The translations under genes and the position numbers were made by a program. Below the pieces are notes generated by a model, which was given only the letters and a program-made list of their open reading frames with translations, was not told the origin of the DNA and did not search any database. From Patescibacteria group bacterium (GTDB taxonomy: Bacteria > Patescibacteriota > Patescibacteriia > JAHIZJ01), in assembly GCA_018814765.1 (NCBI GenBank), contig JAHIZJ010000027.1:1-39321 (forward strand): a stretch of DNA of 39,321 nucleotides. The letters run 5' to 3'. Positions 351 through 38,964 of the stretch are shown here, piece after piece (the first letter of the stretch is position 1; each line of letters begins with the position of its first letter).

Positions 351-872
351 TCAAAGCTTACAAATGGTTATATATCCATCAGCATCTTCATTGGATTGTA
401 TTACGCTTCGTACCAGTGTCTTAGCCTGATCAATTCCGTGTTTTTTTGAAAAATCATAAAAACTACAGAATGGATAATTCAGTAAATCATCAAATCTACT
501 TACTTCACGATGTTTAAGTGGATTTCCTATTATATATCTAGATATCTTCCAGTTAATTACTTCTGAATCAATTCGTCTAGAGTGGAAACTCTGCCAAAAA
601 TGTTCATATGGTTTAGGGAATAATTTCCGATAGTCATATGATGTTCCTCCGTGTAGAAATTGACGGATTTTCGGAATTAGATTATTTGAATTTAATCTGA
701 ACTTAAGATGGTAATGATTCATTGAAATTGAAAAGACTATGTAATCCATTTCAAATTTATTTCGAAGCCCATCAATTCTATTTAGAATAATCTGTTTTTG
801 ATTTTCTTCTCTAAAATACGGATAGTGGATATACGTTGTTCCTGTTAAAAAATAGATGGCGCTATTGGACAT
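351..872 (-). mobile_element. REP-associated tyrosine (HUH/Y1) transposase, RAYT/IS200-like
   Basis: YFLT N-terminus, NHYH HUH motif, YIIGNP catalytic Tyr motif, YPFCS tail; REP-like flanks. Confidence 0.8.
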
Positions 873-3284: not shown

Positions 3285-3312
3285 GTAGACGAGATTCCGG
3301 AATCTCGTCTAC
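3285..3312. repeat. Perfect 28-bp palindrome, GTAG-type REP-like
   Basis: gtagacgagattccggaatctcgtctac. Confidence 0.8.
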
Positions 3313-3883: not shown

Positions 3884-4261
3884 ATGAGACATTTGCTCGT
3901 TATATTGTCATGCATGCTGATTATGGTGGCTGTAGCGCCAAATCAGTGTAGCGGGTGTCAGGAGGGCGCAGTCCTTATTGTAACTAGCCCAGAGAAGGTG
4001 GACATTACTGTTGACAGAGAGGAGAGGAGCAAGAGAGTACGGCTAACCTTTTCTATTGTCGAGGCAGGGCCAGTCAATCTGGATATCGGATGGATATCAA
4101 GATATTGTCTCGACTTTAACGGGGTAGTCATGATTTTCGACAAGAAATGGTTTGAAGTTGGCACGTACGAGTTGTTCGTTGATTTGCCTGATCCGCATGC
4201 GGACAACTATTACGTGTTTAATCTGGTCGTTAATGGCCAGTTGATTCAAGCTGATCTTTAG
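3884..4261 (+). CDS. Hypothetical secreted protein
   Basis: GGAGG RBS, signal peptide MRHLLVILSCML, TTGACA promoter upstream, terminator downstream. Confidence 0.7.
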   Translation: MRHLLVILSCMLIMVAVAPNQCSGCQEGAVLIVTSPEKVDITVDREERSKRVRLTFSIVEAGPVNLDIGWISRYCLDFNGVVMIFDKKWFEVGTYELFVDLPDPHADNYYVFNLVVNGQLIQADL

Positions 4262-4370
4262 GAACAACCTAAACAATACCACCGTCACTATGAATTAGTT
4301 GGCGGTGTTTTTTTGTTATGAAAATAATATAAAAAAGGCCCTGTCCAAAGAATCAGACAGGGCAAAGGAA

Positions 4371-6258: not shown

Positions 6259-7233
6259 TTAATGTCTTATTCTCATTTTATAGAATTTTTTTGCTTTATC
6301 GTACGTTGAAGCTTCTTCATCTCTGATTTCACGGCCGGTCAGCTTTAGGAAAACGTCGTTTAGGGTAGGCTTTCGCAGATCAACACTTTTTACTTTCATG
6401 GACAAGCCACGAAAAAGTAGGGGTATGAATTCCTCGCCTGTCTCTTTTGTAATTAGTAATCCATCATCTTTTTTATTAACCTCAAGACCGAATTTATTTT
6501 TTATTTCTTGAGTTGCCTGATCGTTGTTGTCAGTAATTAAGGTAATAACATCGCCCCCAATCATATCTTTCAGTTTTTTCGGAGTATCAATAGCAATTAT
6601 TTCACCTTTATCCATAATAGCTATTCTATCGCAGTATTCAGCCTCATCCATGTAATGAGTGGTCATAAACATAGTTATGTCTTCTTTTTGTCTTAATTGC
6701 ATGATATATTCCCAGATACGGTTTCTGGTTTGCGGATCCAGACCAATTGTCGGCTCATCCAGAAAGAGAACCTTCGGATAATGTAATAAACCACGAGCTA
6801 TTTCCAGACGTCTTTTCATGCCGCCGGAGAAAGTCTCTACCAGATCCTTTTTTCTAACAGCCAAGTCAAGCAACCCTAACATGTTATCAATCCGCTGGTC
6901 CATTTTTTCGCCTGATTCTCCGTATAGCCAGGCATGAAATTTTAAGTTTTCCTTGGCTGTCAGCTTGTCATCCAGCGAAGGATCCTGAAAAATCAGGCCG
7001 ATAGATGAGCGTACTTTGTCTTTGTCTTTCACTGCATTAAAGCCGTTTATTAGAGCTTGTCCGGATGTGGGCTTAAGAAGAGTGGTTAGCATGTTTATAG
7101 TGGTCGTTTTACCGGCGCCATTTGGTCCGAGAAATCCAAAAATCTCCCCCCTGTTGACTTCAAAGGATACATTGTTGACCGCTGTTAAATCTTTAAACTT
7201 TCTGGTTAATCCTTTAACTTCAATAATACTCAT
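6259..7233 (-). CDS. ABC exporter ATP-binding protein (DrrA-like)
   Basis: GPNGAGKT, FSGGMKRR, LDEPT, TTHYMDEA. Confidence 0.95.
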   Translation of the reverse strand: MSIIEVKGLTRKFKDLTAVNNVSFEVNRGEIFGFLGPNGAGKTTTINMLTTLLKPTSGQALINGFNAVKDKDKVRSSIGLIFQDPSLDDKLTAKENLKFHAWLYGESGEKMDQRIDNMLGLLDLAVRKKDLVETFSGGMKRRLEIARGLLHYPKVLFLDEPTIGLDPQTRNRIWEYIMQLRQKEDITMFMTTHYMDEAEYCDRIAIMDKGEIIAIDTPKKLKDMIGGDVITLITDNNDQATQEIKNKFGLEVNKKDDGLLITKETGEEFIPLLFRGLSMKVKSVDLRKPTLNDVFLKLTGREIRDEEASTYDKAKKFYKMRIRH

Positions 7234-7328
7234 ATGCTTATTTACTATGCTTCTTAATGTTTTTTTTCATAATATTCATAAAATAAGAATTTTAAAAAAT
7301 CATTCATATATAGGGAACGACTCCCTGA

Positions 7329-7736
7329 TGGGGTGGTAGATGGACCCAGTACCACTCACTTCGTTCGGGTACTGGGTGAAAAACCACAACCGCCGGTACC
7401 ACCCAGTCCCGCCAAGCAAGCTGGTTGATTAGGAAACGATGTCTGGGGTGGCCGATGGGGCTCGAACCCACAACCGCCGGTACCACAAACCGGTGCTCTA
7501 CCATTGAGCTACGGCCACCCCAGACATAACTTCTTTATTATATTCATATTTAATAATGCACATACTTTTATTTTGGCTTGGCGAGCGGGGCGGGGCAAAC
7601 CGGTGCTCCCTGTCCCGCACCCAGGGTGGTGCGGGATACCATTGAGCCCCGACGAGATCGCTCTGCGATCTGTCGGGATCCTGGATCCCGAACGGCTCTG
7701 CCGCTTCGGAACATCGGGACTACGGCCACCCCAGAC
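7329..7736 (-). pseudogene. Fragmented tRNA-His copy with four hairpin insertions, enclosing the intact gene
   Basis: Collinear tRNA pieces at 7329-7343, 7384-7402, 7596-7608, 7637-7647 and 7720-7736. Confidence 0.8.
7444..7519 (-). tRNA. tRNA-His (GUG)
   Basis: GGTGGCCGTAGCTCAATGGTAGAGCACCGGTTTGTGGTACCGGCGGTTGTGGGTTCGAGCCCCATCGGCCACCCCA; cloverleaf, G-1:C73, encoded CCA. Confidence 0.96.
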
Positions 7737-7757
7737 CCTACTTGCTGTAACGTCTAT

Positions 7758-7786
7758 ATTGTAATGGAACTTTAACCAGATGGCAA
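7758..7786 (-). promoter_or_regulatory. Sigma70-type promoter for the tRNA-His locus
   Basis: TTGCCA-N17-TACAAT on the minus strand. Confidence 0.6.
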
Positions 7787-7789
7787 GAT

Positions 7790-7985
7790 AAAAAAATGGT
7801 CCGGAGGAACACTAATCGCGCGAGCGATAGCGTTCCCCGGACCGGCCCGGACGGATCCCTTTTTTGGACAAGAACAGGAGCGGGAAACCGCCGGGCAGAC
7901 GAGATCAAAACCGCGTCCAAGGCCGGGTCAAGACCGACTCATGGTGCTACACGGCTGACCTCCCAAAAAGCATTATATAAAGCTA
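7790..7985 (-). ncRNA. Candidate small GC-rich RNA
   Basis: TTGACA-N17-TAACAT upstream (8019-7991); long hairpin 7798-7843 plus T run; no convincing ORF. Confidence 0.35.
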
Positions 7986-8046
7986 GGATTATGTTATCGT
8001 AAGATAATTATATTGTCAAGGGGGTGTATTGAAAATAGCCGAGTAA

Positions 8047-8670
8047 CTATAGTATAAATTCTTTCCCTGATCCGTGGAAAGTAACTTGATTATCTTTTAC
8101 AACGAAAAACTGTCCGTCAGCAAGTAGTCGGATGGGATATTTGAGATTAGCATATATATTTCTAAAGTTGGGAAGCTTTTCTTCTGTGACGTGGCATTTA
8201 ACCAAGAATGGTACCAATTTCATCGCTGTGAAGTCTGTCAGACCGACTGTGTTCCACTTAGGTTTCAATATTGCATGTTGGTCGATTGACGGACCGGCCA
8301 CATAAGCTCCTGAACTGCTACCGGTATATACACCACCTTGGTCTAGGAATTCTCGGACAACTTGTTCGAATCCACTTTCTCTGATTGCGAGTAGCATGTG
8401 AAAGCCGTTACCGCCGGTTAGATGGACAACGTCTTTATCTTTTAGGGCATGCCTAACCTCGTCCTGATCTTTGCCCTTTATATCATAATCCTCCAGATCC
8501 ATTCCCAACGAAGTCCAGACGCTTGCCCCTCTCTCAATGTAGGTTGTATCCGGAACATCGCGACAGGCAGAAGTAATACGTAAAACCCTGGTTTGATCCG
8601 GGCTCTTGGGAAAATGTTTGGAAAATTCTTTTACGTCTTTATTGGCTGAGGCCAATATTATTGTACCCAT
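8047..8670 (-). CDS. Peptidase E (S51) / class I glutamine amidotransferase-like protein
   Basis: LTGGNG and YTGSSSGA nucleophile elbow, downstream His. Confidence 0.85.
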   Translation of the reverse strand: MGTIILASANKDVKEFSKHFPKSPDQTRVLRITSACRDVPDTTYIERGASVWTSLGMDLEDYDIKGKDQDEVRHALKDKDVVHLTGGNGFHMLLAIRESGFEQVVREFLDQGGVYTGSSSGAYVAGPSIDQHAILKPKWNTVGLTDFTAMKLVPFLVKCHVTEEKLPNFRNIYANLKYPIRLLADGQFFVVKDNQVTFHGSGKEFIL

Positions 8671-9692: not shown

Positions 9693-10272
9693 GACTGTCG
9701 AATCAAGCCTGCCTGCATACCTTCGGCATGTAAACCGGCAGGCAAGCTGGATAGTGACAATGGGTAGAACCCTAAAAGCCACAACGATTGTCATTGTCGA
9801 GTTTAACTCGACAATCCAGAAATTCCACCAAACCAATCTTCAGCTAAATCAAGCCAGTTGGGATTTGAATTCTCTATTAGAGCTAACTTCCACTCACGAT
9901 TCCAGCCCTTTAGTTGTTTCTCACGACGGATTGCCTCAGCCACATCATCGGTTTCTTCAAAGTAAACAAGCCTATTAACATTGTACTCTTCCGTGAAGCC
10001 TTTGTTGAATTTTGTTTTGTGTTCATATGCTCGTCGCTCAAGGTCGTTGGTTACACCGATGTATAATGTTCCATTGCGTTGGCTGGCGAGGATATAAACA
10101 TAGTAGGTTCGTGACATATGACGGGCGGTAAATATTAAATATAACCCGTCATGTTTTTTGTCTTTATTTCTAGGCTGTCCGATCAAGCCTGTCTGCCGAC
10201 AAGGCAGGTTGGATAGTGACATAGGACGTTTGTTTGTTTTTCTAGACTATCGAATCGAGTTCGATAGTGACA
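9693..10272. repeat. Four TGTCA-headed REP-like palindromes flanking the GIY-YIG gene
   Basis: Units at 9693-9759, 9789-9816, 10173-10221 and 10245-10272; consensus TGTCAYTRTCSA...TCGAYAGTC. Confidence 0.75.
9803..10117 (-). CDS. GIY-YIG nuclease family protein
   Basis: YYVYILAS...LYIGVTNDLERR...AIRREKQLKGWNREWK. Confidence 0.93.
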   Translation of the reverse strand: MSRTYYVYILASQRNGTLYIGVTNDLERRAYEHKTKFNKGFTEEYNVNRLVYFEETDDVAEAIRREKQLKGWNREWKLALIENSNPNWLDLAEDWFGGISGLSS

Positions 10273-10311
10273 TTGAGTGGTACCCTCGAGAGCCTGCCCG
10301 CCTGACTCGTC

Positions 10312-10386
10312 TGGTGTCCCCAGTAGGAATCGAACCTACATCTAGGGCTTAGAAGGCCCTCGTTCTATCCGTTGAACTATAGGGAC
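10312..10386 (-). tRNA. tRNA-Arg (UCU)
   Basis: GTCCCTATAGTTCAACGGATAGAACGAGGGCCTTCTAAGCCCTAGATGTAGGTTCGATTCCTACTGGGGACACCA. Confidence 0.95.
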
Positions 10387-10405
10387 CTCAGGCGAGTTGG
10401 GCGGG

Positions 10406-10440
10406 GAAGGCCGCTGTTCTATCCGTTGAGCTACAGGGGC
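10406..10440 (-). pseudogene. 5' half of a second, divergent tRNA-Arg (its 3' end probably at 10278-10290)
   Basis: GCCCCTGTAGCTCAACGGATAGAACAGCGGCCTTC breaks inside the anticodon; CTCGAGGGTACCA lies on the other side of the intact tRNA. Confidence 0.7.
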
Positions 10441-10526
10441 ATAAGTAAGTATGTTGTCAAGCTACGCTTGATCCGGCATAGCCGGAAACTACAGAGACAA
10501 GAAATGTGTTAATAAATATACGATGA

Positions 10527-11492
10527 TTATGATTTATCGTCAACGCCTTTGTCTTTTTTAGGACGACCACGTTTACGCGCGTGGAAAGCATTATAAACAT
10601 CTTTTAGCTGTTGATTAGTAATGTGGGTGTATATCTGTGTGGTGGTGATCGAAGCGTGACCCAAGAGTGATTGAACAGAGCGAATGTCTGCTCCACTGGT
10701 CAGAAGATCGGTGGCATAGGAGTGCCTTAACACATGAGGTGTAATTCGTTTGGTAATGCCGACTGACTTGGCGTAGTATTGTACCAAGCGCTGAATACTT
10801 CTAGGGGTTAAGTGTTTGGTGTCGTTTGATTTGTTGGCAGCTCGATCATGTCTGACAAAGAGGGCCAGTGAAGCATCTTGGCGTGCATCCAGATATTGTT
10901 TAAGCCAATACTTTGCCTGGTTAGATAGAAAGACTAAGCGCAACTTACTTCCTTTGCCACGGACAGTGAAGTCGTCTTTTTTCAGGTTGATCTGGTCTTG
11001 TGTCAGATTGGCTAGCTCAGAGACACGTAAACCGGTTGAAAAAAGGAGCTCGAGGATAGCCTTGTCACGTTTTTGAATGATTGGTGGCTCTTTTGACTTT
11101 AGCGGAGCTTCGAGAAAACGCTCCAGATCTTCCCCTTCGAGAAAGGTAACCTGACGATCTGGCATCTTGGCCAGCTCTATCTTTTCCGGGGCTAGAGCCT
11201 TGATATCACGTTTAGCTAAATATTTTAGGAACGAACGCAGAGCAATCAAATAGTAATTCTGGGTACTTTTATTAAGTGGTTCTTTGCGCTGGTTCTCTTG
11301 GCGATTTAACCAAAGGCGATATTTTCTCACAACTTCAATTTCTAGATCGTCAGCGGTTTTGATTTTTGAAAACTCCAAGAATCTATTCAAGTATGATTTG
11401 TAATTCCTTTTTGTGGCTAAGCTACAGTTTCTTTCAATTTCCAGATGATCCAGGAATTCTTTGATGAGTTGTTTGAGAGAAGGTGAGGTCAT
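10527..11492 (-). CDS. Tyrosine recombinase, XerC/D family
   Basis: N-terminal SAM-like domain; TGLRVSE, GKG.K.R, HVLRHSYAT, LGHASITTTQIYTH. Confidence 0.93.
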   Translation of the reverse strand: MTSPSLKQLIKEFLDHLEIERNCSLATKRNYKSYLNRFLEFSKIKTADDLEIEVVRKYRLWLNRQENQRKEPLNKSTQNYYLIALRSFLKYLAKRDIKALAPEKIELAKMPDRQVTFLEGEDLERFLEAPLKSKEPPIIQKRDKAILELLFSTGLRVSELANLTQDQINLKKDDFTVRGKGSKLRLVFLSNQAKYWLKQYLDARQDASLALFVRHDRAANKSNDTKHLTPRSIQRLVQYYAKSVGITKRITPHVLRHSYATDLLTSGADIRSVQSLLGHASITTTQIYTHITNQQLKDVYNAFHARKRGRPKKDKGVDDKS

Positions 11493-11690: not shown

Positions 11691-14600
11691 ATGAACCCTA
11701 TGGCTACAAAAACCAAGATCACGACCAATACTTTTACCAAAGTGTTCATTTATATTACCGGTGGAATGTTTGTTGTAACTGCGGGTTTCGGGATTTACCT
11801 TTCGGGAAATATTAAAGTATTCAACAAAGAGGCTGCTATTAAAGAATCAGGGGCAGCGAACTCCGCTCATTCAAGAAATGTTAGTAGTATTTCTTCAGAC
11901 CGCGTACTGGTAGCCTATAGTGCTGATTGGCCCGAAGACCTAGATAATAATGGAACACAAGACTCGTTGCAGGTTGCCGAGTACTATATGCAGAGGCGAG
12001 GAATCCCAATAGAGAATATTATCAGTCTTCCCATCACAGACGTTACAAGTTACAACCGTTTTCAACTTTCTTATGATAGATTGCATGACGAGATAATAAC
12101 TCCGTTAAAAGAGAAGCTGGCAATTCTTGGTCCCTCCAATATTGATGTGATACTTCTTTGCTATGGCCTACCATATAAAACAGTAGCGTACGCCGGTACA
12201 GACCCACTTACGGTTAGTGTAGATAATGCGGTTATGGGATTATATCGTCTGGTTCCAGAGGTTGACCTATTTAAAGATAACAACCCTTATTTTGAAGTGA
12301 GCCCGATTTTTAACTTACCAGACAAAGGGCACTTTAATCATGATGACTACAAGTATGGTGGTCAAACAATGTACCTGGTCTCTCGTCTCGATGGACCAAA
12401 CGGAGTTACCGGTACGCTTGAGCTTATTGACCAGGCGCTCTATGGGGAGCAATACATATCAGCTCAAGATGGATACTATAATGGTATTGGCTATGCAGAC
12501 AGCTATGGTGAGTTTGGCGGAGATGAAGGACTGGCAAACGATCCGGCAGTGCAGAATGGCTGGTACAGTACGGTTAACGATGCCGCAAAGAATATTGCCT
12601 GGACTGAACATTTCGTTGTTGAAGGAGAATTTCCCCTGAAGTGGGAAGTTACAAGCAATGAAATCGGAGAGCCGGGCGCAGAATATTCTGATAGCAGCTC
12701 AGCCGAAGAATCACCGGAACAGCCATTGTTTTATGGCGGGTGGTATGTGATGAATGAGGACGTCTGGGATTGGCTACCGGGTTCATTGGGAATTGATTTG
12801 AATAGCTATTCGCTGTCTGATTTAAAAACTGGCACAGGCTATATGGGCGAAGGCTTGGTCCGTGGTTTAACAGGCACATCAGGGGTGATCAACGAGCCCT
12901 ATGTAAATGGTCATGCTCGTCCGCATATATTTATGGCATACATTGTGAGGGGGTATCCATTTGTCGAAGCGGCTATGTTAGCAACCCCTTATTTGGGATG
13001 GATGGCCGTAAATATTGGCGATCCGCTCTATACTCCATTAGCAGCAGATAAACCTCTTATATATGATACACAGGAGCCTGTAATCAGCAGTGGTTATCCT
13101 GTTCTGATCGGAGAGATTGATTCCGGATCAAGGGTGGTAAGTGTAAAAGTTGATGACTCTCCTGAACCTGAGGTGGTGAAAGTAAGTATCGACTATGGTG
13201 TTGACACAGACTATGAGGTGACCGTTGATTCAGGTCCAGGATATTTCCGCCGCCATGAAATTACTTTGCCAGACATTGATGCAGATACAATATATCATTA
13301 TCGCCTTACGCTAGAGGATCCGGTTGGAAATATAACAGTGAGTGATGATTACAACTTTAGTAATGTGTCCATTCCGGCCATCGAGAGCGTAAAAGCCAAT
13401 CAGATAAATGAAATAGATGTAGCTTTCAGCGAAACAATGGATCGGGTCAGCGCAGAGACAGTCTCAAATTACTCTATTGATCAAGGTATTACCGTTTCCT
13501 CTGCCTCGCTTAGTTCCGATGAAAGGACGGTTACACTATCCACCGCTCCGTTAACACCGGGTACAATTTATACTCTGACAGTTAATAATGTGGCTGACCT
13601 AGCGGGACACCCCGTTAATCCGAACACTCAAGCAACGTTTTTTTACGCAGCTAGAGTGTATAGGTCTGTCGGTCCGGGTAATACAGCCGCACTGGCCATA
13701 GGTGCAAGTAACGCACTAAGCATTTCAAATTTCACGGCATCATTTATTTTACCTTTACCAGATAATGTAGGAGTAGGTGATGCTATCCAGTACGATTCTA
13801 GTGGCGATGGAATTATCGACACCATAGCTTTTATTAGTAGCCGTATCTCATCTACCGAATACGTATTAACAAATTCTCTGGGTGGTACACCGGACCAGGT
13901 ATCAGGAGACAGTGACTGGTCGATATTTCGAGCTTATACTTCATTAACTAACGCTGAAAGTGGCTCTGAAAACAGCGGTATCGACTCGTCTGTAAGTGAT
14001 TTTGATAGCTGGACTGATGGAAAAGACTTAGTATCTGCTGGAGAGATTAGGATGATTGCTTGTTATGCTGATGCTATCGATACCGAACGAGTCGATGTAA
14101 ATGGTTGGACCACAAGCCAAGAAGCCTATCTGAAGATTTTTGCTCCGGTGGCTCCTAACGAGGTGGGTGTGACTCAACGTCATAATGGAATTGCCAATGA
14201 ACAGGGGTATAAGATTACCAATGGTACAAACTGGCAGGCAGTTATTAAGGTTTCCAGTAATAATGTTCAAATTGAAGGATTGTGGGTTGAATCAACCGGA
14301 GATAACTGTAAAGGGATTTCTACAAGTGCACACATAACCGATACAAAAATCTTTGGAAACTTAGTGTCTTCAGTTGCTATAAATCCAGGTCTAAACTCCA
14401 ATGTTGGAATATCTATGGAAACAGCGGACCAAGGGCATTCTACATATGTAACGAATAATATTGTTATCGGATATGGAACAGGTATCTATGTTAAGGGTAG
14501 TTGGGATAGTTTTGCCAATTTTTTTATATACAATAATACTGCCGTGAGAAATATTAACGGTGTTAAATGCTATCATGGGGCCGATAATGGTAGCTTTATC

Positions 14601-23462: not shown

Positions 23463-23675
23463 ATGGAAAATAATAGGTGGATAAAGATAGAACAACACCG
23501 TACCACTACTACACTGTTAATCAAGTACAACAGAAAATCCAAAAGGCCAAAATTGAGAGAAAACCCAGTGTTGAAGGTATTAAGTGCTGTAATAGCAAGA
23601 GTGATAATGAGTGTTCTAAGAATTCCTTACAAATTAACTCGTCTTATACAAACAGACGAGAATAATATATGTTAA
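23463..23675 (+). CDS. Small basic hypothetical protein overlapping the RT start
   Basis: Strong RBS AAAGGGGGTGA; 70 aa; an alternative overlapping frame (23477..23665) is also open. Confidence 0.45.
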   Translation: MENNRWIKIEQHRTTTTLLIKYNRKSKRPKLRENPVLKVLSAVIARVIMSVLRIPYKLTRLIQTDENNIC

Positions 23676-24596
23676 AAATAAATCATTTATCACAGTTGTC
23701 TAATTTAATAAAGACTCCCGTTTCTGTAATACGAGAGTTAATTAAGGTTCGTCAGAACCTTTATAGGTTAAAAGTTGAAAAGAAGAAAGATGGATCGGAT
23801 AGAATCTTGCATATTCCTAGCCCTGAGTTAAAAACTACACAGAAAAAGATAAATAGAAATATCTCAAACTTTTTAAAGCTCCCTAGTTATATTCACTCTC
23901 AGTCTGGGCATTCACATGTTCACCATGCAATGAGTCACATTGGTCGGCCGATGGTATATGTATTTGATATCGAGGATTTTTTTCCTAGCATTACAGGTAG
24001 AATGTTAAAAAAAATATTAATGAAGCATGGCATGAGTGAGATAGTTGCAAACTCTATAACAAAGTTATGTACATATAGCGGCTTTCCTCAAGGAAGAAAA
24101 AAAAATTTGTTAGAAATTTTCTTCCACAAGGAGCACCGACTAGTCCAGCACTTGCCACAATGGTTGCTACAAGAATAGATAGTCGACTGGCTAGAATGTG
24201 TGAAAAAAATAATTGGGTCTATTCAAGATATGCTGATGATTTAGCAATATCTGGCGGAACAGGAATTAAAAAAGCCAGGAATACGATAGAGAAAATTATT
24301 ATGGATGAAGGCTTCTTTATTAAAAAAGCTAAAATAGAAATGATCTTACCAAAAGAAGGGAAAATACTTGTTGGACTCCGCATTGTAAAAAATCAGGTAT
24401 TGTTACCAAGAAGTTATTACAAGAATTTAAGGTCGATGATATTCAAGTTTAATAAAGGCATAGAGGGCGCGAAGCCCAAAGAGACAAACTTAGAATATCC
24501 ATCCAATCTAAGCTTGCATATGCTTTGTACATTGAAAAATTCTTTAGTACAAATGGCAAATATTCGAGACTATCCGCTACAGTCTCTATAACATAG
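23669..24596 (+). pseudogene. Retron-like reverse transcriptase, split across reading frames
   Basis: KKDGSDRILHIP..LK..Q, HAMSH (NAxxH-like), DIEDFFPSI; in the -1 frame LPQGAPTSP, YSRYADDL and LVGL (VTG-like). Confidence 0.88.
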
Positions 24597-29518: not shown

Positions 29519-29604
29519 GGCGGGGACGCCTTCATGTAAATTAATAATATATTATATTAAGAAATAGCATTCCTCTTTTTATCCCATTCGTAGGCGTCCC
29601 CGCC
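29519..29604. repeat. 13-bp inverted repeat (REP-like) upstream of transposase
   Basis: ggcggggacgcct (29519-29531) / aggcgtccccgcc (29592-29604). Confidence 0.7.
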
Positions 29605-29619
29605 GTAGACTCTAAATAT

Positions 29620-30171
29620 ATGAAAAACAAGATTTATTACAACAAAGACCATTTTTATTTCTTGACATCCACCATCAGTGGTCATCGTATTATATTTGAT
29701 CGAGATAATTACGCAACAATAGTTATCGATAGTTTGAAGTATCTTCGTGAAAAAAGATATATGAAATTATATTCGTTTGTACTCATGCCAAACCACATCC
29801 ACATTTTACTGAAAGCTATAGATGGATCAACAATTAATGAAATTGCACAAAAACTTCATTCCTATACAGGACACGCACTTCTTGCTCAAATGCGAAATGA
29901 AAAAGATTGGGGATTATTAAAGTATTTTAAAGAGTTTGCTTATTATTCAAAGAACGATCGTAGCCATTGCTTCTGGTATGATGCATTAGTAAGAAGTATA
30001 GTTGACGAAAGATCAGTATTTAGATTTATGGAATATATACATTCAAATCCTTTTAACAAAAAGTGTGAGTTAGTCAAAGATAGATCGGAGTATAAATACT
30101 CAAGTGCTTGTTACTATGATTCGGGTATACAGTCGATTATAGAGGTGGATGATGTGAGGGAAGAGTGTTAA
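29620..30171 (+). mobile_element. REP-associated tyrosine transposase (RAYT)
   Basis: YFLTS, VLMPNHIH, FW, YIHSNP, YKYSSA. Confidence 0.88.
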
Positions 30172-36868: not shown

Positions 36869-37121
36869 GAGATAGCGGAGGAAGACTAGACTGTATTTTG
36901 TTAGGTGAATGCTAATTGCTTTTCTTTATTATTGAGATAAAAAGCGTAGTGTTTAAGCCAATATTAGCTAAATAATGATGGCTTAGTCAGTTACTGCAGT
37001 CAGCATAATAGATAGACTATCATGACCCTAAGTGGTTGTCAAGCAAAATTGTTATGTCAAAAAGCGATGGTCTAATACGTTAAAAAGTGATATTATTTAT
37101 TGGAATAAAGGCAAAAATGTA

Positions 37122-38546
37122 ATGATAAAAAAAGAGAGCACAATAAACGACAGACCAAGATACCAGCCTGAAGAAATTGAGCCTAAGTGGCAGGAGATTT
37201 GGGATAAGACTAAGGCAAGTCTTGTTAAAGAGGATCCAGACAAAAGGAAATACTACATACTGGATATGTTTCCCTATCCTTCGGGCGATGGTCTTCATGT
37301 TGGTCACCCTGAAGGTTACACAGCAACGGATATAATGGCGCGGTATCAGACTATGCACGGTAAAAATGTTCTTCACCCGATGGGTTTTGATTCGTTTGGT
37401 TTACCGGCAGAGAACGCTGCCATAAAACGCAACATCCATCCGCAAGAATATATGGCTCACAATATAGAGCGATTCCGACAACAGATAAAACGTCTGGGTT
37501 TTATGTATGACTGGTCACGCGAAGTAGACACTTCGGATCCTGAATATTATCGCTGGACCCAGTGGATGTTTTTAAAGATGTTTGAACGAGGCCTGGCCTA
37601 TCAAGCTGAGGTGCCGATTAACTGGTGTCCATCATGTAAAACAGGGCTGGCCAATGAAGAGGTGGTTGATGGCAAATGCGAACGCTGTGATACACCGGTT
37701 CAGAAAAAGAAGCTTAAACAATGGTTATTAAAGATAACAGATTATGCCGATAAACTATTAAAAGGACTGGATGATATTGACTGGCCCGAATCTATCAAGA
37801 CACTTCAGAAGAATTGGATTGGTCGATCAGAGGGAGCAGAGATTGAATTTAAAATTTATAATGAAGAATTAAAAATAAAAAGTAATGAAAAAAGTCAGTG
37901 CCTAATTATTCATGGCATAGGCGGCCACAGAAGAGAAAATTGGTTCCCTTGGTTAAAATCAGTTTTGAAGAAAAATGGATATACGGTAAATTTGCCAACA
38001 CTTCCCATCACAGATCATCCAGAGGTGGATGTGTGGAATGAAGCACTAAAAAAGGAAAGTAAGTCATCATCAGTTCTGATTGGTCATAGTATAGGGGCTA
38101 CAGCTGCTTTAAATTTAGTACAAACAACTGATCGACCAGTAGATCAAATTATCTTAGTAGCACCGGTTAATCCCGAGCAAGATTGGAAGCACTCTCAGGA
38201 GGAGTTTCCTGAAGCTGATTGGAACGCTATAAAGCAATTCGCTGATATTAAGTTTGATTGGAAAAAGATTAATAAGCTGGTAAAACATATAGTTATATAT
38301 TATTCCGACAATGATCCGTTTATTTCTGTTAAGTCGATTGGCTTTTATAAACGACATTTACCAAATGCCACATTTAAACTGTTGCCTGGTAAGGGGCATT
38401 TTAATGAACGAGATGGAATTACCGAATTTCCCGAGATACTCGATGTATTAACTCCTAAAATAAAAGTCTTTACCACTAGGCCCGACACCTTGTTTGGTGC
38501 TACCTATCTCGTGCTCGCGCCTGAGCACTCGATAATTAATAATTTA
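37122..38546 (+). CDS. leuS: Leucyl-tRNA synthetase, N-terminal part with inserted alpha/beta hydrolase; truncated
   Basis: [39 protein letters not shown]; homology stops after APEH. Confidence 0.93.
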
Positions 38547-38964
38547 GCCTTTGATTGTCATCAAAATAAGCAGGTACTGTGATAACAGCCTTTTTTATTG
38601 GCTCTCCAACAAACTCCTCAGCATCTTTCTTTATTTTTTGCAGAATAAAAGCAGAAATCTGCTGGGGAGTATAGTTTTTTCCATTGATTTTATACTCAAA
38701 ACTTTTTCCCATCTTTCTTTTTGCAGCAGTTATTGTGCCTTGCGGGTTGCTTATAGCCTGTCTTCTTGCTGGCTCTCCTACAAGCATCTGCCCGTCTTTT
38801 GTAAATGCCACAACACTTGGAAATGCTATCCCGTAAGCAGTTGTTCCTTCTGCGCTTGGTATGATTGTTGGCTTTCCAGCCTGCAATACCGCTGCAGCAG
38901 AATTTGATGTGCCTAAATCTATTCCAATAATTTTTTCTTTCTTCATTTTTGTTTTTTCAGCCAT
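38547..38964 (-). CDS. dnaK: DnaK/Hsp70 N-terminal fragment, archaeal-like; truncated
   Basis: [11 protein letters not shown]...[14 protein letters not shown], then abrupt loss of homology. Confidence 0.92.

Follow-up and report, generated by a model that had tools for sequence, protein, structure and literature searches.

A tRNA-Arg(UCU) gene nested in the anticodon of a dead tRNA-Arg in a Patescibacteria genome, and its possible origin by serial insertion of palindrome-ended tRNA cassettes

The window analyzed here, a stretch of 39,321 nucleotides from a Patescibacteria (CPR) genome, carries a tRNA-Arg(UCU) gene and a tRNA-His gene downstream of a gene for a Xer-type tyrosine recombinase (Table 1), and the order xer, tRNA-Arg, tRNA-His is kept in 13 of 20 related loci, across which the neighboring Xer has 58-83% identity. 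The intact tRNA-Arg, 72 of whose 75 nt are the same as in the genes of loci L002 and L006, is enclosed by a GC-rich inverted repeat of 17-19 nt. The left arm ends 2 nt before base 1 of the tRNA and the CA of the encoded CCA joins the pairing of the right arm, so that the arms bracket the gene near its mature ends, as a first-pass annotation of this DNA had proposed. By inspection, 14 of the 17 positions of the arm core are paired (P ~1e-6 in a fixed register, or ~9e-5 with a per-base pairing of 0.35), and the repeat search, which counted in the acceptor stem, gave 24 nt at 79% complementarity. The arm motif has three matches in the 39 kb of the window against 0.18 expected, all of them at the two tRNAs. 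In the predicted folds the paired arms form a helix that encloses the inner cloverleaf and extends from the outer anticodon stem, with folding z values of -3.06 for 223 nt of the window and -7.86 (-250.8 kcal/mol) for 529 nt of L001. Searches against Rfam, by gathering threshold and, for 10100-10600 and 7200-8100, by E-value, returned the two tRNAs and chance-level matches only, with no covariance-model match to a group I intron ribozyme core at either tRNA region, and no ORF lies inside the tRNA cassettes of the window. In the phage and plasmid collections only the 75-nt tRNA core found matches, to generic tRNA-Arg genes at 75-81% identity and over no more than 36% of the query, and the arms and relics were unmatched.

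The intact tRNA-Arg interrupts the anticodon of a dead tRNA-Arg, between its positions 35 and 36. The 5' half of this dead gene, described in the first-pass annotation as divergent and ending inside the anticodon, is identical to the L015 tRNA-Arg at 31 of 35 positions (E 8e-7), to the inner gene at 29 of 35, with differing acceptor and anticodon stems, and to the matching split half in L001 at 28 of 35; when the whole window was searched, it matched the inner gene over 23 nt at 91% (E 0.002). Downstream, what had been taken for a tRNA 3' end at 10278-10290 is a genuine tRNA-Arg 3' end that extends to 10295. Fifteen of its nucleotides, CTCTCGAGGGTACCA, are found in two copies 3' of the intact gene in L006, and the intact L001 tRNA-Arg has a matching 3' end. 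The 5' half lies 19 nt and the 3' end 16 nt from the intact tRNA-Arg, and the junctions of the insert, marked by a slash, read ...CCTTC/CCCGCC... and ...GGCGGG(C)/.... By inspection, the 3' relic pairs imperfectly with the neighboring 5' half, with one C.A mismatch and two wobbles. Because the outer gene lacks positions 36 to about 58, the exactness of the Arg insertion is not demonstrable in the window itself.

A third layer, earlier suspected as a faint relic at about 10470-10498, proved real and consists of GTCTCTGTAGTT followed by two 15-nt hairpins, together spanning 10457-10498. The same module, an insertion of hairpins after nt 12 of a tRNA-Arg 5' end, recurs in L001, L004, L005 and L012, and the stem of the second hairpin of this D-arm doublet differs in sequence among the five genomes with pairing kept in every one. 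Counted with explicit patterns (a crude scan for GC-rich 6-bp stems was discarded as too noisy), the family TCCGCC-N3/4-GGCGGA occurs 6 times in 287 kb, where 0.008 copies would be expected, with five of the copies within 320 nt of a tRNA-Arg and the sixth in a putative tRNA 3' relic. For the first mini-palindrome, 36 of 36 cells were paired, with one compensatory pair in 6 copies, a covariation count matched by 80 of 500 shuffles and hence lending no statistical support to a role as RNA; it neither favors such a role nor rules it out.

Table 1. Features of the two tRNA loci and their surroundings in the window.
Feature	Position	Strand	Basis or remark
Y1-transposase-like genes	351-872 and 29620-30171		45 and 69 bits vs NCBIfam cut-off 80
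Nested tRNA-His locus	7329..7736	minus	outer gene in five pieces, GC-rich hairpin inserts between
Outer tRNA-His pieces	7730-7720, 7647-7637, 7608-7596, 7402-7384, 7343-7329	minus	window alignment
Intact tRNA-His	7519-7444	minus	at outer anticodon position 34/35
tRNA-His arms	7595-7576 and 7417-7403	minus	flank intact tRNA-His
Outer promoter-like site of tRNA-His	7786-7758	minus	consensus match
Small GIY-YIG nuclease gene, catalytic domain only	9803..10117	minus	160 nt downstream of stack
Hairpin 3' of stack, CTATCGAA-CTCGA-TTCGATAG	10247..10267	minus	L001 version with two compensatory pair changes
Dead tRNA-Arg 3' end GGGTACCA	10278..10295	minus	AGGC plus last 14 nt with CCA; allele type intact in L001
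Right arm GACGAGTCAGGCGGGC	10296..10311	minus	starts immediately 3' of CCA
Intact tRNA-Arg(UCU), encoded CCA, working gene	10312-10386	minus	ARAGORN (TCT); Rfam 72.4 bits
Left arm CCCGCCCAACTCGCCTGAG	10387..10405	minus	repeat search and comparison with L001
Dead tRNA-Arg 5' half, positions 1-35	10406..10440	minus	sequence matches; ends CCTTC after anticodon base 35
Two 15-nt mini-palindromes, TCCGGC-TAT-GCCGGA and TCAAGC-GTA-GCTTGA	10457..10486		after nt 12 of outermost relic
Outermost relic GTCTCTGTAGTT	10487..10498	minus	first 12 nt of tRNA-Arg; intact gene at that place in L002, L006
Promoter-like site TTGACG-17-TATATT	10515..10543	minus	end of xer, upstream of tRNA-Arg stack; 10/12 consensus positions, consensus match only
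Xer-type tyrosine recombinase gene	10527..11492	minus	directly upstream of stack; conserved neighbor of tRNA pair

Around the stack, the TATATT box of the promoter-like site aligns by inspection with CGTATATT in L001 and L002, and a copy of the GIY-YIG gene, which in the window lies outside the tRNA stack, is found 82% identical at the equivalent place in L001. Farther away, a retron-type reverse transcriptase gene is split by a frameshift at 23669-24591, and truncated leuS and dnaK fragments meet at an odd junction at 38536-38582.

The tRNA-His of the window is nested as well, as the first-pass annotation had held for both tRNAs, and since the pattern recurs, it argues for a mechanism at work. 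Four of the outer pieces (11+11+13+19 = 54 nt) match the inner gene without a difference, at 54 of 54 positions, and the fifth matches it at 13 of 15; inner and outer genes share 17 of 17 nt that include 6 nt of the 5' leader, and their 3' trailers are alignable. Between the inner tRNA-His and its left arm lie 55 nt with an AT-rich stretch. The outer gene has no T-loop and two adjacent acceptor mismatches, and its pieces, joined in silico, gave no tRNA by ARAGORN. On these alignments, the identity of outer and inner His genes and their common leader would suit a local duplication better than an import.

Among related loci, relics of tRNAs stand beside the intact Arg gene in 9 of 18 and beside the intact His gene in 5 of 14 (window included), and none of these 9 Arg and 5 His loci lacks an intact copy. 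The first-pass annotation had proposed a comparison of orthologous loci for empty, palindrome-only and nested states, and all three were found. The simple state is seen in L002, L003, L010 and L014-L019; the palindrome alone, CCCGCC-TCT-GGCGGG, with a stem identical to the outermost 6 nt of the arms, occupies a D-arm site in L005 and a T-loop site in L006, which also has a 33-nt hairpin at His 34/35; and the nested state exists besides. The arms, likewise sought elsewhere, occur only in the window, L001 and L006 among the 21 sequences searched, and only at tRNA loci. Sequence comparison shows them to be common to the Arg and His cassettes and across genomes: the 15-mer CCCGCCCCGCTCGCC stands next to tRNA-His in the window but next to tRNA-Arg in L001, the right arm of the window is identical to L001 11339-11354 at 16 of 16 positions, and the left arm to L001 11050-11068 at 17 of 19 (counted by hand). 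Relic patterns without such arms are present in L004, L005, L009 and L013, and L008 has another short inverted repeat; the locus is subject to more than one process. The bases before the insertions are CTTC (Arg anticodon), GTTC (T-loop) and GTT (D-arm and one T-loop), with TTTG, GTAG and GGTA in tRNA-His, a target that is T-rich but from which no single consensus could be defined over the Arg and His sites. The intron mode of ARAGORN, applied to all sequences, was uninformative and yielded only chimeric calls that combined a relic 5' half with an intact 3' half.

The closest relative, L001, carries a 111-nt arm-tRNA-arm unit between ...CCTTC and TAAG... (junction ...GGGCGGG/TAAG...). Its flanking halves abut exactly at 35/36 and, joined in silico, give a tRNA-Arg(tct) that ARAGORN accepts. 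The alleles have swapped roles between the two genomes, with X inside a Y-type relic in the window and an intact Y inside an X-like split gene in L001, and the left arm stands 3' of the split 5' half in the window and 5' of the split half in L001. We could not derive a single order of events for the window, L001 and L006. By alignment, the inner and outer Arg genes of the window are different alleles, and together with the anatomy of the locus this supports the earlier description, in which a palindrome with a working tRNA in its loop interrupts a different and older allele. The tRNA-Arg alleles, as compared by sequence, are also at odds with the genome tree. Identities are 82% for Xer and 73% for tRNA-Arg between the window and L001; 68%, 96% and, for tRNA-His, 79% between the window and L006; and 68% for Xer with 100% for tRNA-Arg between L002 and L006. 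In the L004-L005 pair, Xer is 90%, tRNA-His 94% and tRNA-Arg 79% identical, and the intact L004 gene is the one lying between relics of the L005-type allele. As the identity of tRNA-Arg is at odds with that of Xer, the alleles are undergoing replacement. The four-fold sites of Xer are saturated between the window and L001 (38 of 135 identical; third positions 38%), and despite this the arms and relics of the two are 80-100% identical. Identity of this order, read from the alignments, exceeds what neutral descent would leave and fits either recent spread or constraint; conservation above the neutral expectation could also reflect a function that the composite itself performs.

We consider it moderately probable that the three-layer tRNA-Arg(UCU) stack arose through serial gene replacement on the DNA level by palindrome-ended tRNA cassettes. 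A complete tRNA gene would arrive in an ORF-less cassette of ~110 nt, bounded by a GC-rich inverted repeat of 15-19 nt, and would enter the anticodon loop of a resident gene of the same specificity (35/36 in Arg, 34/35 in His) with no target duplication. Since the insert provides the essential tRNA, the split resident copy would become dispensable; the dead copy would then decay and gain GC-rich mini-palindromes of 15-40 nt in its D-arm, anticodon loop and T-loop, and nesting would arise when a later cassette strikes the working gene again. In the transcript, pairing of the arms would lengthen the acceptor stem into a long helix, from which the inner tRNA would be cut. We infer both this processing role of the arms and the movement of arm, tRNA and arm as a single unit. 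As to the enzyme, we would guess at an activity specific for hairpins or single strands, such as that of a Y1/HUH transposase, or else at the repair of a break made by a homing-type nuclease. The confinement of the arm family to 3 of the 21 sequences searched counts against this mechanism; neither a free or circular cassette among the sequences examined nor a filled and an empty state of one and the same allele among the loci examined was seen.

The alternative that survives best holds that the locus bears the scars of integrases, with kilobase-sized elements having entered the tRNA genes with partial tRNA copies and then lost their interiors. Large serine recombinase genes adjoin tRNAs in L002 and L009, L006 has a run of 3' relics downstream of its intact gene without a 5' relic, and the locus shares with integrative elements both its character as a hotspot and its breakpoints in the anticodon loop and T-loop, which Williams in 2002 is said to have given as the classical crossover places of tyrosine integrases. 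In the accessible parts of PMC9897764 and of a study of Thermus elements (10.64898/2026.04.20.719267), tRNA fragments from integration are described as common in prokaryotes; a partial copy of the tRNA lies beside a complete one, and the gene stays functional through tRNA sequence supplied by the element, as here by the insert. The layout speaks against this reading, which we regard as unlikely. Integrative elements are of kilobase scale, end in direct repeats, leave one partial copy and have their own integrase and a repeated core, whereas the insert here measures ~110 nt, has the tRNA as its sole gene and inverted repeats at its ends, and is flanked on both sides by fragments of the resident gene, the 5' half upstream and the 3' part downstream of the complete gene, within 20 nt of it in the window and L001. 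No integrase was found at the window insert, and inspection recognized no core repeated at its two junctions or at those in L001. The fragments are not a standard attL/attR pair, nor do the exact abutment of the L001 halves and the D-arm site, which is not among known integrase sites, agree with such an origin. The adjoining xer is a conserved core gene and is not evidence of an integrated element, because it adjoins simple and nested loci alike.

Local duplication without any mobile element, through slippage, template switching or repair of breaks at the palindrome combined with gene conversion, is a rather unlikely account of the whole. It has the tRNA-His locus in its favor, with its identical outer pieces, common leader and alignable trailers, as well as L005 and L008, which resemble partial tandem duplications of the 5' part of the gene itself. 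Against it stand the different inner and outer Arg alleles, the incongruence of allele identity with Xer identity and the presence of one arm 15-mer around different tRNAs in different genomes; pieces of 11-19 nt are also probably too short for ordinary gene conversion.

Improbable, too, is a functional composite RNA, in which the inserts would be removed from the outer tRNA in the manner of an intron or intervening sequence (IVS), or the nested fold would serve as a scaffold or leader. This reading would account for the retention of architecture and sequence between genomes with saturated synonymous sites, the compensatory changes in the hairpin behind the stack, the constant pairing of the second D-arm hairpin, the very stable predicted folds and the joining of the L001 halves into a valid tRNA. 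The gaps in the window's outer Arg gene, the outer His gene with its missing T-loop, mismatched acceptor and unrecognizable joined pieces, the intact copy that accompanies every set of relics and the failure of Rfam to identify an intron or other family at the locus all weigh on the other side. The accessible part of PMC11270868 describes many short, uncharacterized insertions in CPR rRNA genes, and there are several likenesses: the insertions come from the same phylum, are without ribozyme features, sit at the tips or bases of helices, have complementary ends that form a long stem and are associated with GIY-YIG and 23S-rRNA-IVS proteins, and here GIY-YIG genes occur in the window, L001 and L009, while L004 has an IVS protein. 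The word 'tRNA' does not occur in the main text of PMC11270868. The complementary ends of rRNA-type intervening sequences form a long stem in place of a loop, as the window arms do in predicted folds. In contrast to the rRNA case, a tRNA cut at the anticodon cannot work in pieces, and the insertion carries a replacement; excision by RNase III with a host RNA that goes on working in pieces would thus be implausible here.

Disrupted tRNA genes are best known from archaea. The split tRNA genes of Nanoarchaeum have GC-rich complementary sequences after the 5' half and before the 3' half. In the accessible parts of PMC4390854, PMC4090602 and PMC3218864, archaeal tRNAs are interrupted in the D-arm, anticodon loop and T-loop, the same places as here. 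Unlike the archaeal split and intron-containing genes, those described here belong to a bacterium and always have a complete gene beside or inside the pieces. Archaeal exons join to a functional tRNA, whereas the outer copies of the window cannot be rebuilt and only the split gene of L001 joins; the archaeal bulge-helix-bulge of exon-intron junctions was not recognized at the junctions here, which were inspected by eye.

The first-pass annotation had offered two origins for the inner tRNA, rescue by recombination or the copying of a mature tRNA. Recombination is possible, but the inner Arg gene differs from the outer one and is probably an imported allele, not a rescued copy. Reverse transcription of a mature tRNA into the loop of the palindrome, for which the close fit of the window arms to the mature ends and the frameshift-split reverse transcriptase gene might be cited, is very improbable and was not supported: the L001 cassette has no CCA, the inner tRNA-His has a leader and a trailer in common with the outer gene and lies well away from its arm, and GACGA, with which the right arm begins, also follows a copy of that allele in L006 that has no arms, so that the first bases of the right arm look like an ordinary trailer. 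An assembly artefact is scarcely credible, even though the contig is apparently metagenome-assembled and contains the odd leuS/dnaK junction, given the layered architecture with homologous arms and hairpins in independent assemblies from different projects (L001, L004, L005, L006, L012).

Palindrome-ended tRNA cassettes, the reading we prefer, have partial counterparts among mobile elements. Xer-dependent dif modules of plasmids are small cassettes bounded by inverted recombination sites, and the tRNA locus here always adjoins xer; in the arms, which are 15-19 nt long and GC-rich, no 11-6-11 dif-like layout was recognized. In L008 and L012, an HNH gene (phrog_1271, E 1e-15) follows a tRNA-His 5' half that stops at the anticodon and is itself followed by an intact tRNA-His belonging to a different allele; in L009 a GIY-YIG gene separates the 5' part of a tRNA-Arg from the intact copy. 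These insertions, at or just after the anticodon loop, resemble the intronless homing, T4 SegB and 'fractured genes' described in the accessible parts of PMC13096335 and PMC2677866, in that a nuclease-interrupted tRNA is accompanied by an intact copy, but the window cassettes have no endonuclease gene inside the insert.

Our literature search, whose coverage of subscription journals was small, found no bacterial case of one tRNA gene lying within the anticodon of a second. We tentatively propose, at somewhat less than even confidence, that ORF-less, palindrome-ended mobile cassettes with a whole tRNA gene as sole cargo and, as target, the anticodon loop of a resident gene with the same specificity form an unrecognized, self-compensating 'tRNA-in-tRNA' class, which, together with 15-nt mini-palindromes that home to the three tRNA loops, would make the tRNA alleles of Patescibacteria turn over rapidly by horizontal transfer. 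A possible setting for this is a conflict with nucleases whose targets are tRNAs or their genes. The usual picture of tRNA genes is one of stable landmarks at which large elements integrate; here the genes themselves turn over, and insertion into the anticodons of their predecessors leaves layers that record the order of events. If mobile, the arm-flanked units would be the smallest known elements that make good the damage of entering an essential gene, and would open a path by which tRNA alleles pass horizontally among reduced CPR genomes. In practice, relics and copies loaded with hairpins will mislead tRNA annotation, as well as island finders that rely on tRNAs, in this large phylum.

REPINs consist of two inverted arms and a spacer that form one long hairpin, to which the arms here are similar, and we know of no REPIN with a tRNA in its spacer. 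REP and REPIN sequences and their RAYT proteins, as described in the accessible part of PMC3733652, share with the cassettes short GC-rich palindromes and insertion with no target duplication. REP and REPIN sequences carry a GTAG or CGTC tag and are dispersed and mostly extragenic, whereas the arms here have neither tag and are restricted to two tRNA loci in 39 kb; the D-arm mini-palindromes begin 0-3 nt after the (G/A)TAG of the tRNA itself, possibly by coincidence. The two Y1-transposase-like genes of the window give it a likeness to the REP/RAYT setting. They lie 9 and 19 kb from the event site, tblastn found no homologue of their proteins in 20-23 related loci, and, whereas a RAYT gene is flanked by its own repeats, the repeats that flank them are unlike the arms. 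Just upstream of one of them, at 29519-29608, is a 13-bp inverted repeat with a GTAG tag.

Both tRNA genes of the window are nested, and we read the tRNA-Arg stack as most likely the product of serial tRNA gene replacement at the DNA level. The two genes, found with ARAGORN and Rfam, lie on the minus strand and encode CCA, and every part of the tRNA-Arg(UCU) nest listed in the first-pass annotation is present at the coordinates given there, including the remains of an older split allele outside the GC-rich inverted-repeat arms that bracket the working gene. With the register set by the tRNA ends, 14 of 17 arm-core positions pair (P ~1e-6, or 9e-5 under a generous per-base pairing chance); pair counts, like the junction readings used here, were made by eye on printed sequences. 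The arm motif has 3 matches in the window against 0.18 expected, a number reached in 0 of 100 shuffles. The dead 5' half is 91% identical to the inner gene over 23 nt (E 0.002, searched against the window) and matches the tRNA-Arg of the related locus L015 at 31 of 35 positions (E 8e-7), and 15 nt of the 3' relic occur exactly, in two copies, in locus L006.

Features of the two nested tRNA regions of the window
Feature	Position	Strand	Basis
Promoter-like site, end of xer	10543-10515	-	consensus match only
Outermost relic, tRNA-Arg nt 1-12	10498-10487	-	
Mini-palindrome doublet, 2 x 15 nt	10486-10457	-	
16-nt spacer	between mini-palindrome doublet and tRNA-Arg 5' half	-	
tRNA-Arg 5' half, ends after anticodon base 35	10440-10406	-	
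Left arm	10405-10387	-	
tRNA-Arg(TCT), intact	10312-10386	-	ARAGORN; Rfam 72.4 bits
Right arm	10311-10296	-	
3' relic, AGGC + final 14 nt of tRNA-Arg with CCA	10295-10278	-	
Additional hairpin past the stack	10267-10247	-	
Small GIY-YIG gene	10117-9803	-	
Promoter-like site of outer tRNA-His	7786-7758	-	consensus match
tRNA-His(GTG), intact, CCA encoded	7444-7518	-	ARAGORN; Rfam 66.9 bits

The adjoining gene (10527-11492) encodes a Xer-type tyrosine recombinase with many close homologues, their source names being Patescibacteria, Kerfeldbacteria and Falkowbacteria. A genome search with this protein gave 23 loci, of which 20 are related after exclusion of L021-L023 (Xer 27% identity); no tRNA is present in L007, L011 and L020, all three of them short. 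Thirteen of the 20 keep the order xer, tRNA-Arg(TCT), tRNA-His(GTG), and the Arg-His gap of 5-12 nt in L009, L010, L013, L014 and L015 is what we take as the simple state. Relics were sought by blastn-short (E <=0.05), every intact tRNA serving as a query against each region between the end of xer and a point 700 nt beyond the last tRNA; they flank the Arg gene at 9 of 18 loci (window, L001, L004, L005, L006, L008, L009, L012, L013) and the His gene at 5 of 14 (window, L005, L006, L008, L012).

The closest parallel, L001 (Xer 82% to the window), carries the window's arrangement mirrored: its intact tRNA-Arg is the allele whose 3' end persists as the window's relic, lies between arms of the same family, and is enclosed by outer halves (5' ...CCTTC, 3' TAAG...) of an allele resembling the window's working gene. 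Joined by script, these halves give a tRNA-Arg(tct) in ARAGORN, and therefore the 111-nt unit interrupts the anticodon precisely at the 35/36 junction, with neither duplication nor loss. A second arm pair (right arm 16/16 and left arm 17/19 identical to the window's) lies outside the first, and beyond it are pieces of a third gene, whose nt 1-12 followed by two hairpins are the counterpart of a faint third relic suspected in the window. Since the place of the outermost relic is taken in L002 and L006 by an intact gene, that layer is the original resident.

The flanking fragments are not a standard attL/attR pair, nor are the arms confined to the window. In the window, the 15-mer CCCGCCCCGCTCGCC forms the left arm of the tRNA-His insert; its complement serves as the right arm of the L001 tRNA-Arg insert. 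In L006 a relic 3' end is followed by a right arm. Among the window and all 23 loci, these three genomes alone contain arm motifs, and none of the motifs lies outside a tRNA locus. Between window and L001, third codon positions of xer are 38% identical and four-fold sites at conserved residues 38/135, i.e. saturated, while the arms, 28 of 35 positions of the split 5' half and the post-stack hairpin, the last with two compensatory pair changes, are retained; this therefore indicates recent spread between genomes or selection. Pairwise identity of tRNA-Arg is incongruent with that of Xer: window-L001, Xer 82% and Arg 73%; window-L006, Xer 68%, Arg 96% and His 79%; L002-L006, Xer 68% and Arg 100%; L004-L005, Xer 90%, Arg 79% and His 94%. 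In L004, the intact Arg gene lies between 5' and 3' relics of the L005-type allele. Judged by sequence, tRNA-Arg alleles are undergoing replacement.

The tRNA-His gene is nested likewise, in richer form. Five pieces tile the outer gene, four exact (11, 11, 13 and 19 nt) and the last 13/15, kept apart by three GC-rich hairpin inserts (72, 28 and 40 nt) and, at anticodon position 34/35, by an insert of 193 nt. The latter comprises, in order, the left arm, an AT-rich stretch of 55 nt, the intact gene, another 26 nt and the right arm. A hairpin with a T-run follows the outer 3' end. Joined in silico the pieces gave no tRNA call; the T-loop is gone and two adjacent acceptor-stem positions mismatch. 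Upstream, a GC-rich stretch of 170-180 nt at 7790-7968 (-), between an S51-peptidase gene and the outer tRNA-His, has three long hairpins and a terminal U-run (fold -88 kcal/mol, z -5.71) and matches no Rfam family; it could be a novel small RNA or further hairpin debris.

Short GC-rich hairpins, which we call mini-palindromes, interrupt the dead copies at recurring positions: after tRNA-Arg nt 12 (window, L001, L004, L005, L012), in the D-loop (L009; His of window and L006), in the T-loop after GGTTC or GGGTT (Arg of L001, L004 and L006; His of L005) and in the anticodon (L006 His). Over 287 kb, TCCGCC-N3/4-GGCGGA occurs 6 times against 0.008 expected and CCCGCC-TCT-GGCGGG twice against 0.004; tRNA relics at the xer locus account for seven of these eight. 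The remaining one, found in L010, belongs by our reading to a tRNA-His 3' relic 6 kb from xer, so tRNA relics are not limited to that locus; there, at 4215-4275, a mini-palindrome doublet precedes the apparent tRNA-His 3' end, adjoining pnp. One 15-mer occurs in both orientations in L004, at the D-arm site in L005 and the T-loop site in L006. The stem of CCCGCC-TCT-GGCGGG equals the six outermost arm bases, which makes it a candidate palindrome-only state. Hairpins with stem TCCCGCACC/GGTGCGGGA occupy three different tRNA-His relic positions in the window, L005 and L006 (there imperfect) and behave as a small repeated family that is probably mobile; stem covariation is too sparse for a test. 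Elsewhere, L018 holds intergenic arrays (545-607, 11032-11112, 12084-12141) of a species-specific mini-hairpin, TCCGGAG-N5-CTCCGGA, and its variants, one immediately 3' of tRNA-Arg(CCT); here another CPR genome seems to harbour a dispersed family of REP-like type. In L003, two oppositely oriented copies of one 22-nt hairpin (9937-9958, 12106-12127), separated by 2.1 kb, enclose tRNA-Val and an FtsH-like gene. At 3285-3312 the window has a perfect palindrome of 28 nt, its two 14-nt halves directly adjoining.

Larger insertions occupy the same sites. In L008 and L012, an HNH endonuclease gene (phrog_1271, E ~1e-15; Pfam score under cut-off) separates an intact tRNA-His from the 5' half, cut off at the anticodon, of a different tRNA-His allele. 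In L009, a GIY-YIG gene separates the intact tRNA-Arg from a tRNA-Arg 5' part that carries a hairpin; in L013, a gene for a 224-aa HTH protein stands between the intact tRNA-Arg and a tRNA-Arg 5' half (1-38). L004 has a 23S-rRNA-IVS-protein gene between Arg and His; large serine recombinases adjoin tRNAs in L002 and L009. The locus is thus a general hotspot, at which at least two processes act.

Under serial replacement, a whole tRNA gene between GC-rich inverted repeats would enter the anticodon loop of a resident of the same specificity and assume its function; the split resident would decay and gather mini-palindromes, leaving the working gene open to a further hit. Where the gene is single-copy and essential, only inserts with a matching tRNA would survive, from which Arg in Arg and His in His would follow, and homology of the flanking halves would allow recombination to spread the whole unit between genomes. 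Neither target duplication nor a repeated core was read at the junctions, which, with hairpin ends and loop targets, suggests a single-strand or hairpin-specific activity, as Y1/HUH transposases possess, or the repair of a break made by a homing-type nuclease; none of the events could be linked to an enzyme. Structure prediction pairs the arms around the inner cloverleaf (window z -3.06; L001 -250.8 kcal/mol, z -7.86), and in the transcript they might serve as a leader-trailer helix for processing; such pairing may be general in the clade. In L008, an inverted repeat of different sequence and 12 nt in length (CCCCTCACCATT / AATGGAGAGGGG; 1813-1824 / 1899-1910) immediately brackets the intact tRNA-Arg, which a partial, 97% identical self-copy precedes.

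Against replacement stand the limitation of the arm family to three genomes and the failure of window, L001 and L006 to yield a single consistent history; the 21 related sequences examined included neither a free cassette nor an empty-versus-filled pair. Local duplication suits the tRNA-His nest, where inner and outer copies are one allele with a common leader. The composite could also have a function of its own, given its conservation beyond saturated Xer sites. Of the claims in the first-pass annotation, the nesting, the older allele and the existence of a mechanism find support; copying of a mature tRNA, one of the routes it proposed, does not.

We rate the nested stack as belonging with known mobile-DNA scars at tRNA genes. 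Fragments left by integrating elements are well known (PMC9897764; 10.64898/2026.04.20.719267), though there they are direct repeats ending kilobase elements. Compared with REP/REPIN sequences (PMC3733652), the arms share the hairpin form but lack the tag, dispersal and transposase linkage. Archaeal disrupted tRNA genes are interrupted at the same positions, whereas the window's outer copies cannot be rebuilt, and no bulge-helix-bulge motif was recognised by eye in the printed sequences. Short non-intron insertions with GIY-YIG or IVS proteins are numerous in CPR rRNA genes (PMC11270868); the main text of that paper does not mention tRNAs. Literature searches found no report of a bacterial tRNA gene that sits within the anticodon of a second one, and the arm-flanked tRNA units stand a real chance of being a new element type.

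Several further features of the window were observed. Between stack and GIY-YIG gene (10120-10275, -), there are three copies of ATGTCAC with a hairpin, the third of them being the start codon of that gene, which suggests duplicated GIY-YIG 5' ends or repeated hairpin modules. At 37032-38964, a leuS frame has a serine-hydrolase (alpha/beta hydrolase) domain between its catalytic and editing domains (aa 291-474) and ends after 516 aa, overlapping an opposite-strand 142-aa N-terminal dnaK fragment, a junction due to rearrangement or else to a join made in assembly. At 23669-24591 (+), a frameshift has apparently split a retron-type reverse transcriptase gene into two overlapping frames (169 + 143 aa). 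A Y1 (IS200-like / REP-associated-like) transposase gene at 351-872 (-) is flanked at 300-350 and 1035-1080 by direct, not inverted, repeats of ~45 nt (...GGGGTTGTATAGCTTTAGCT...). At 29519-29608, an AT-rich stretch of 60 nt lies between the two halves of a perfect 13-bp inverted repeat (GGCGGGGACGCCT / AGGCGTCCCCGCC), after which comes GTAG; the repeat lies immediately 5' of a second Y1-transposase-like gene (29620-30171, +), a REPtron-like layout.
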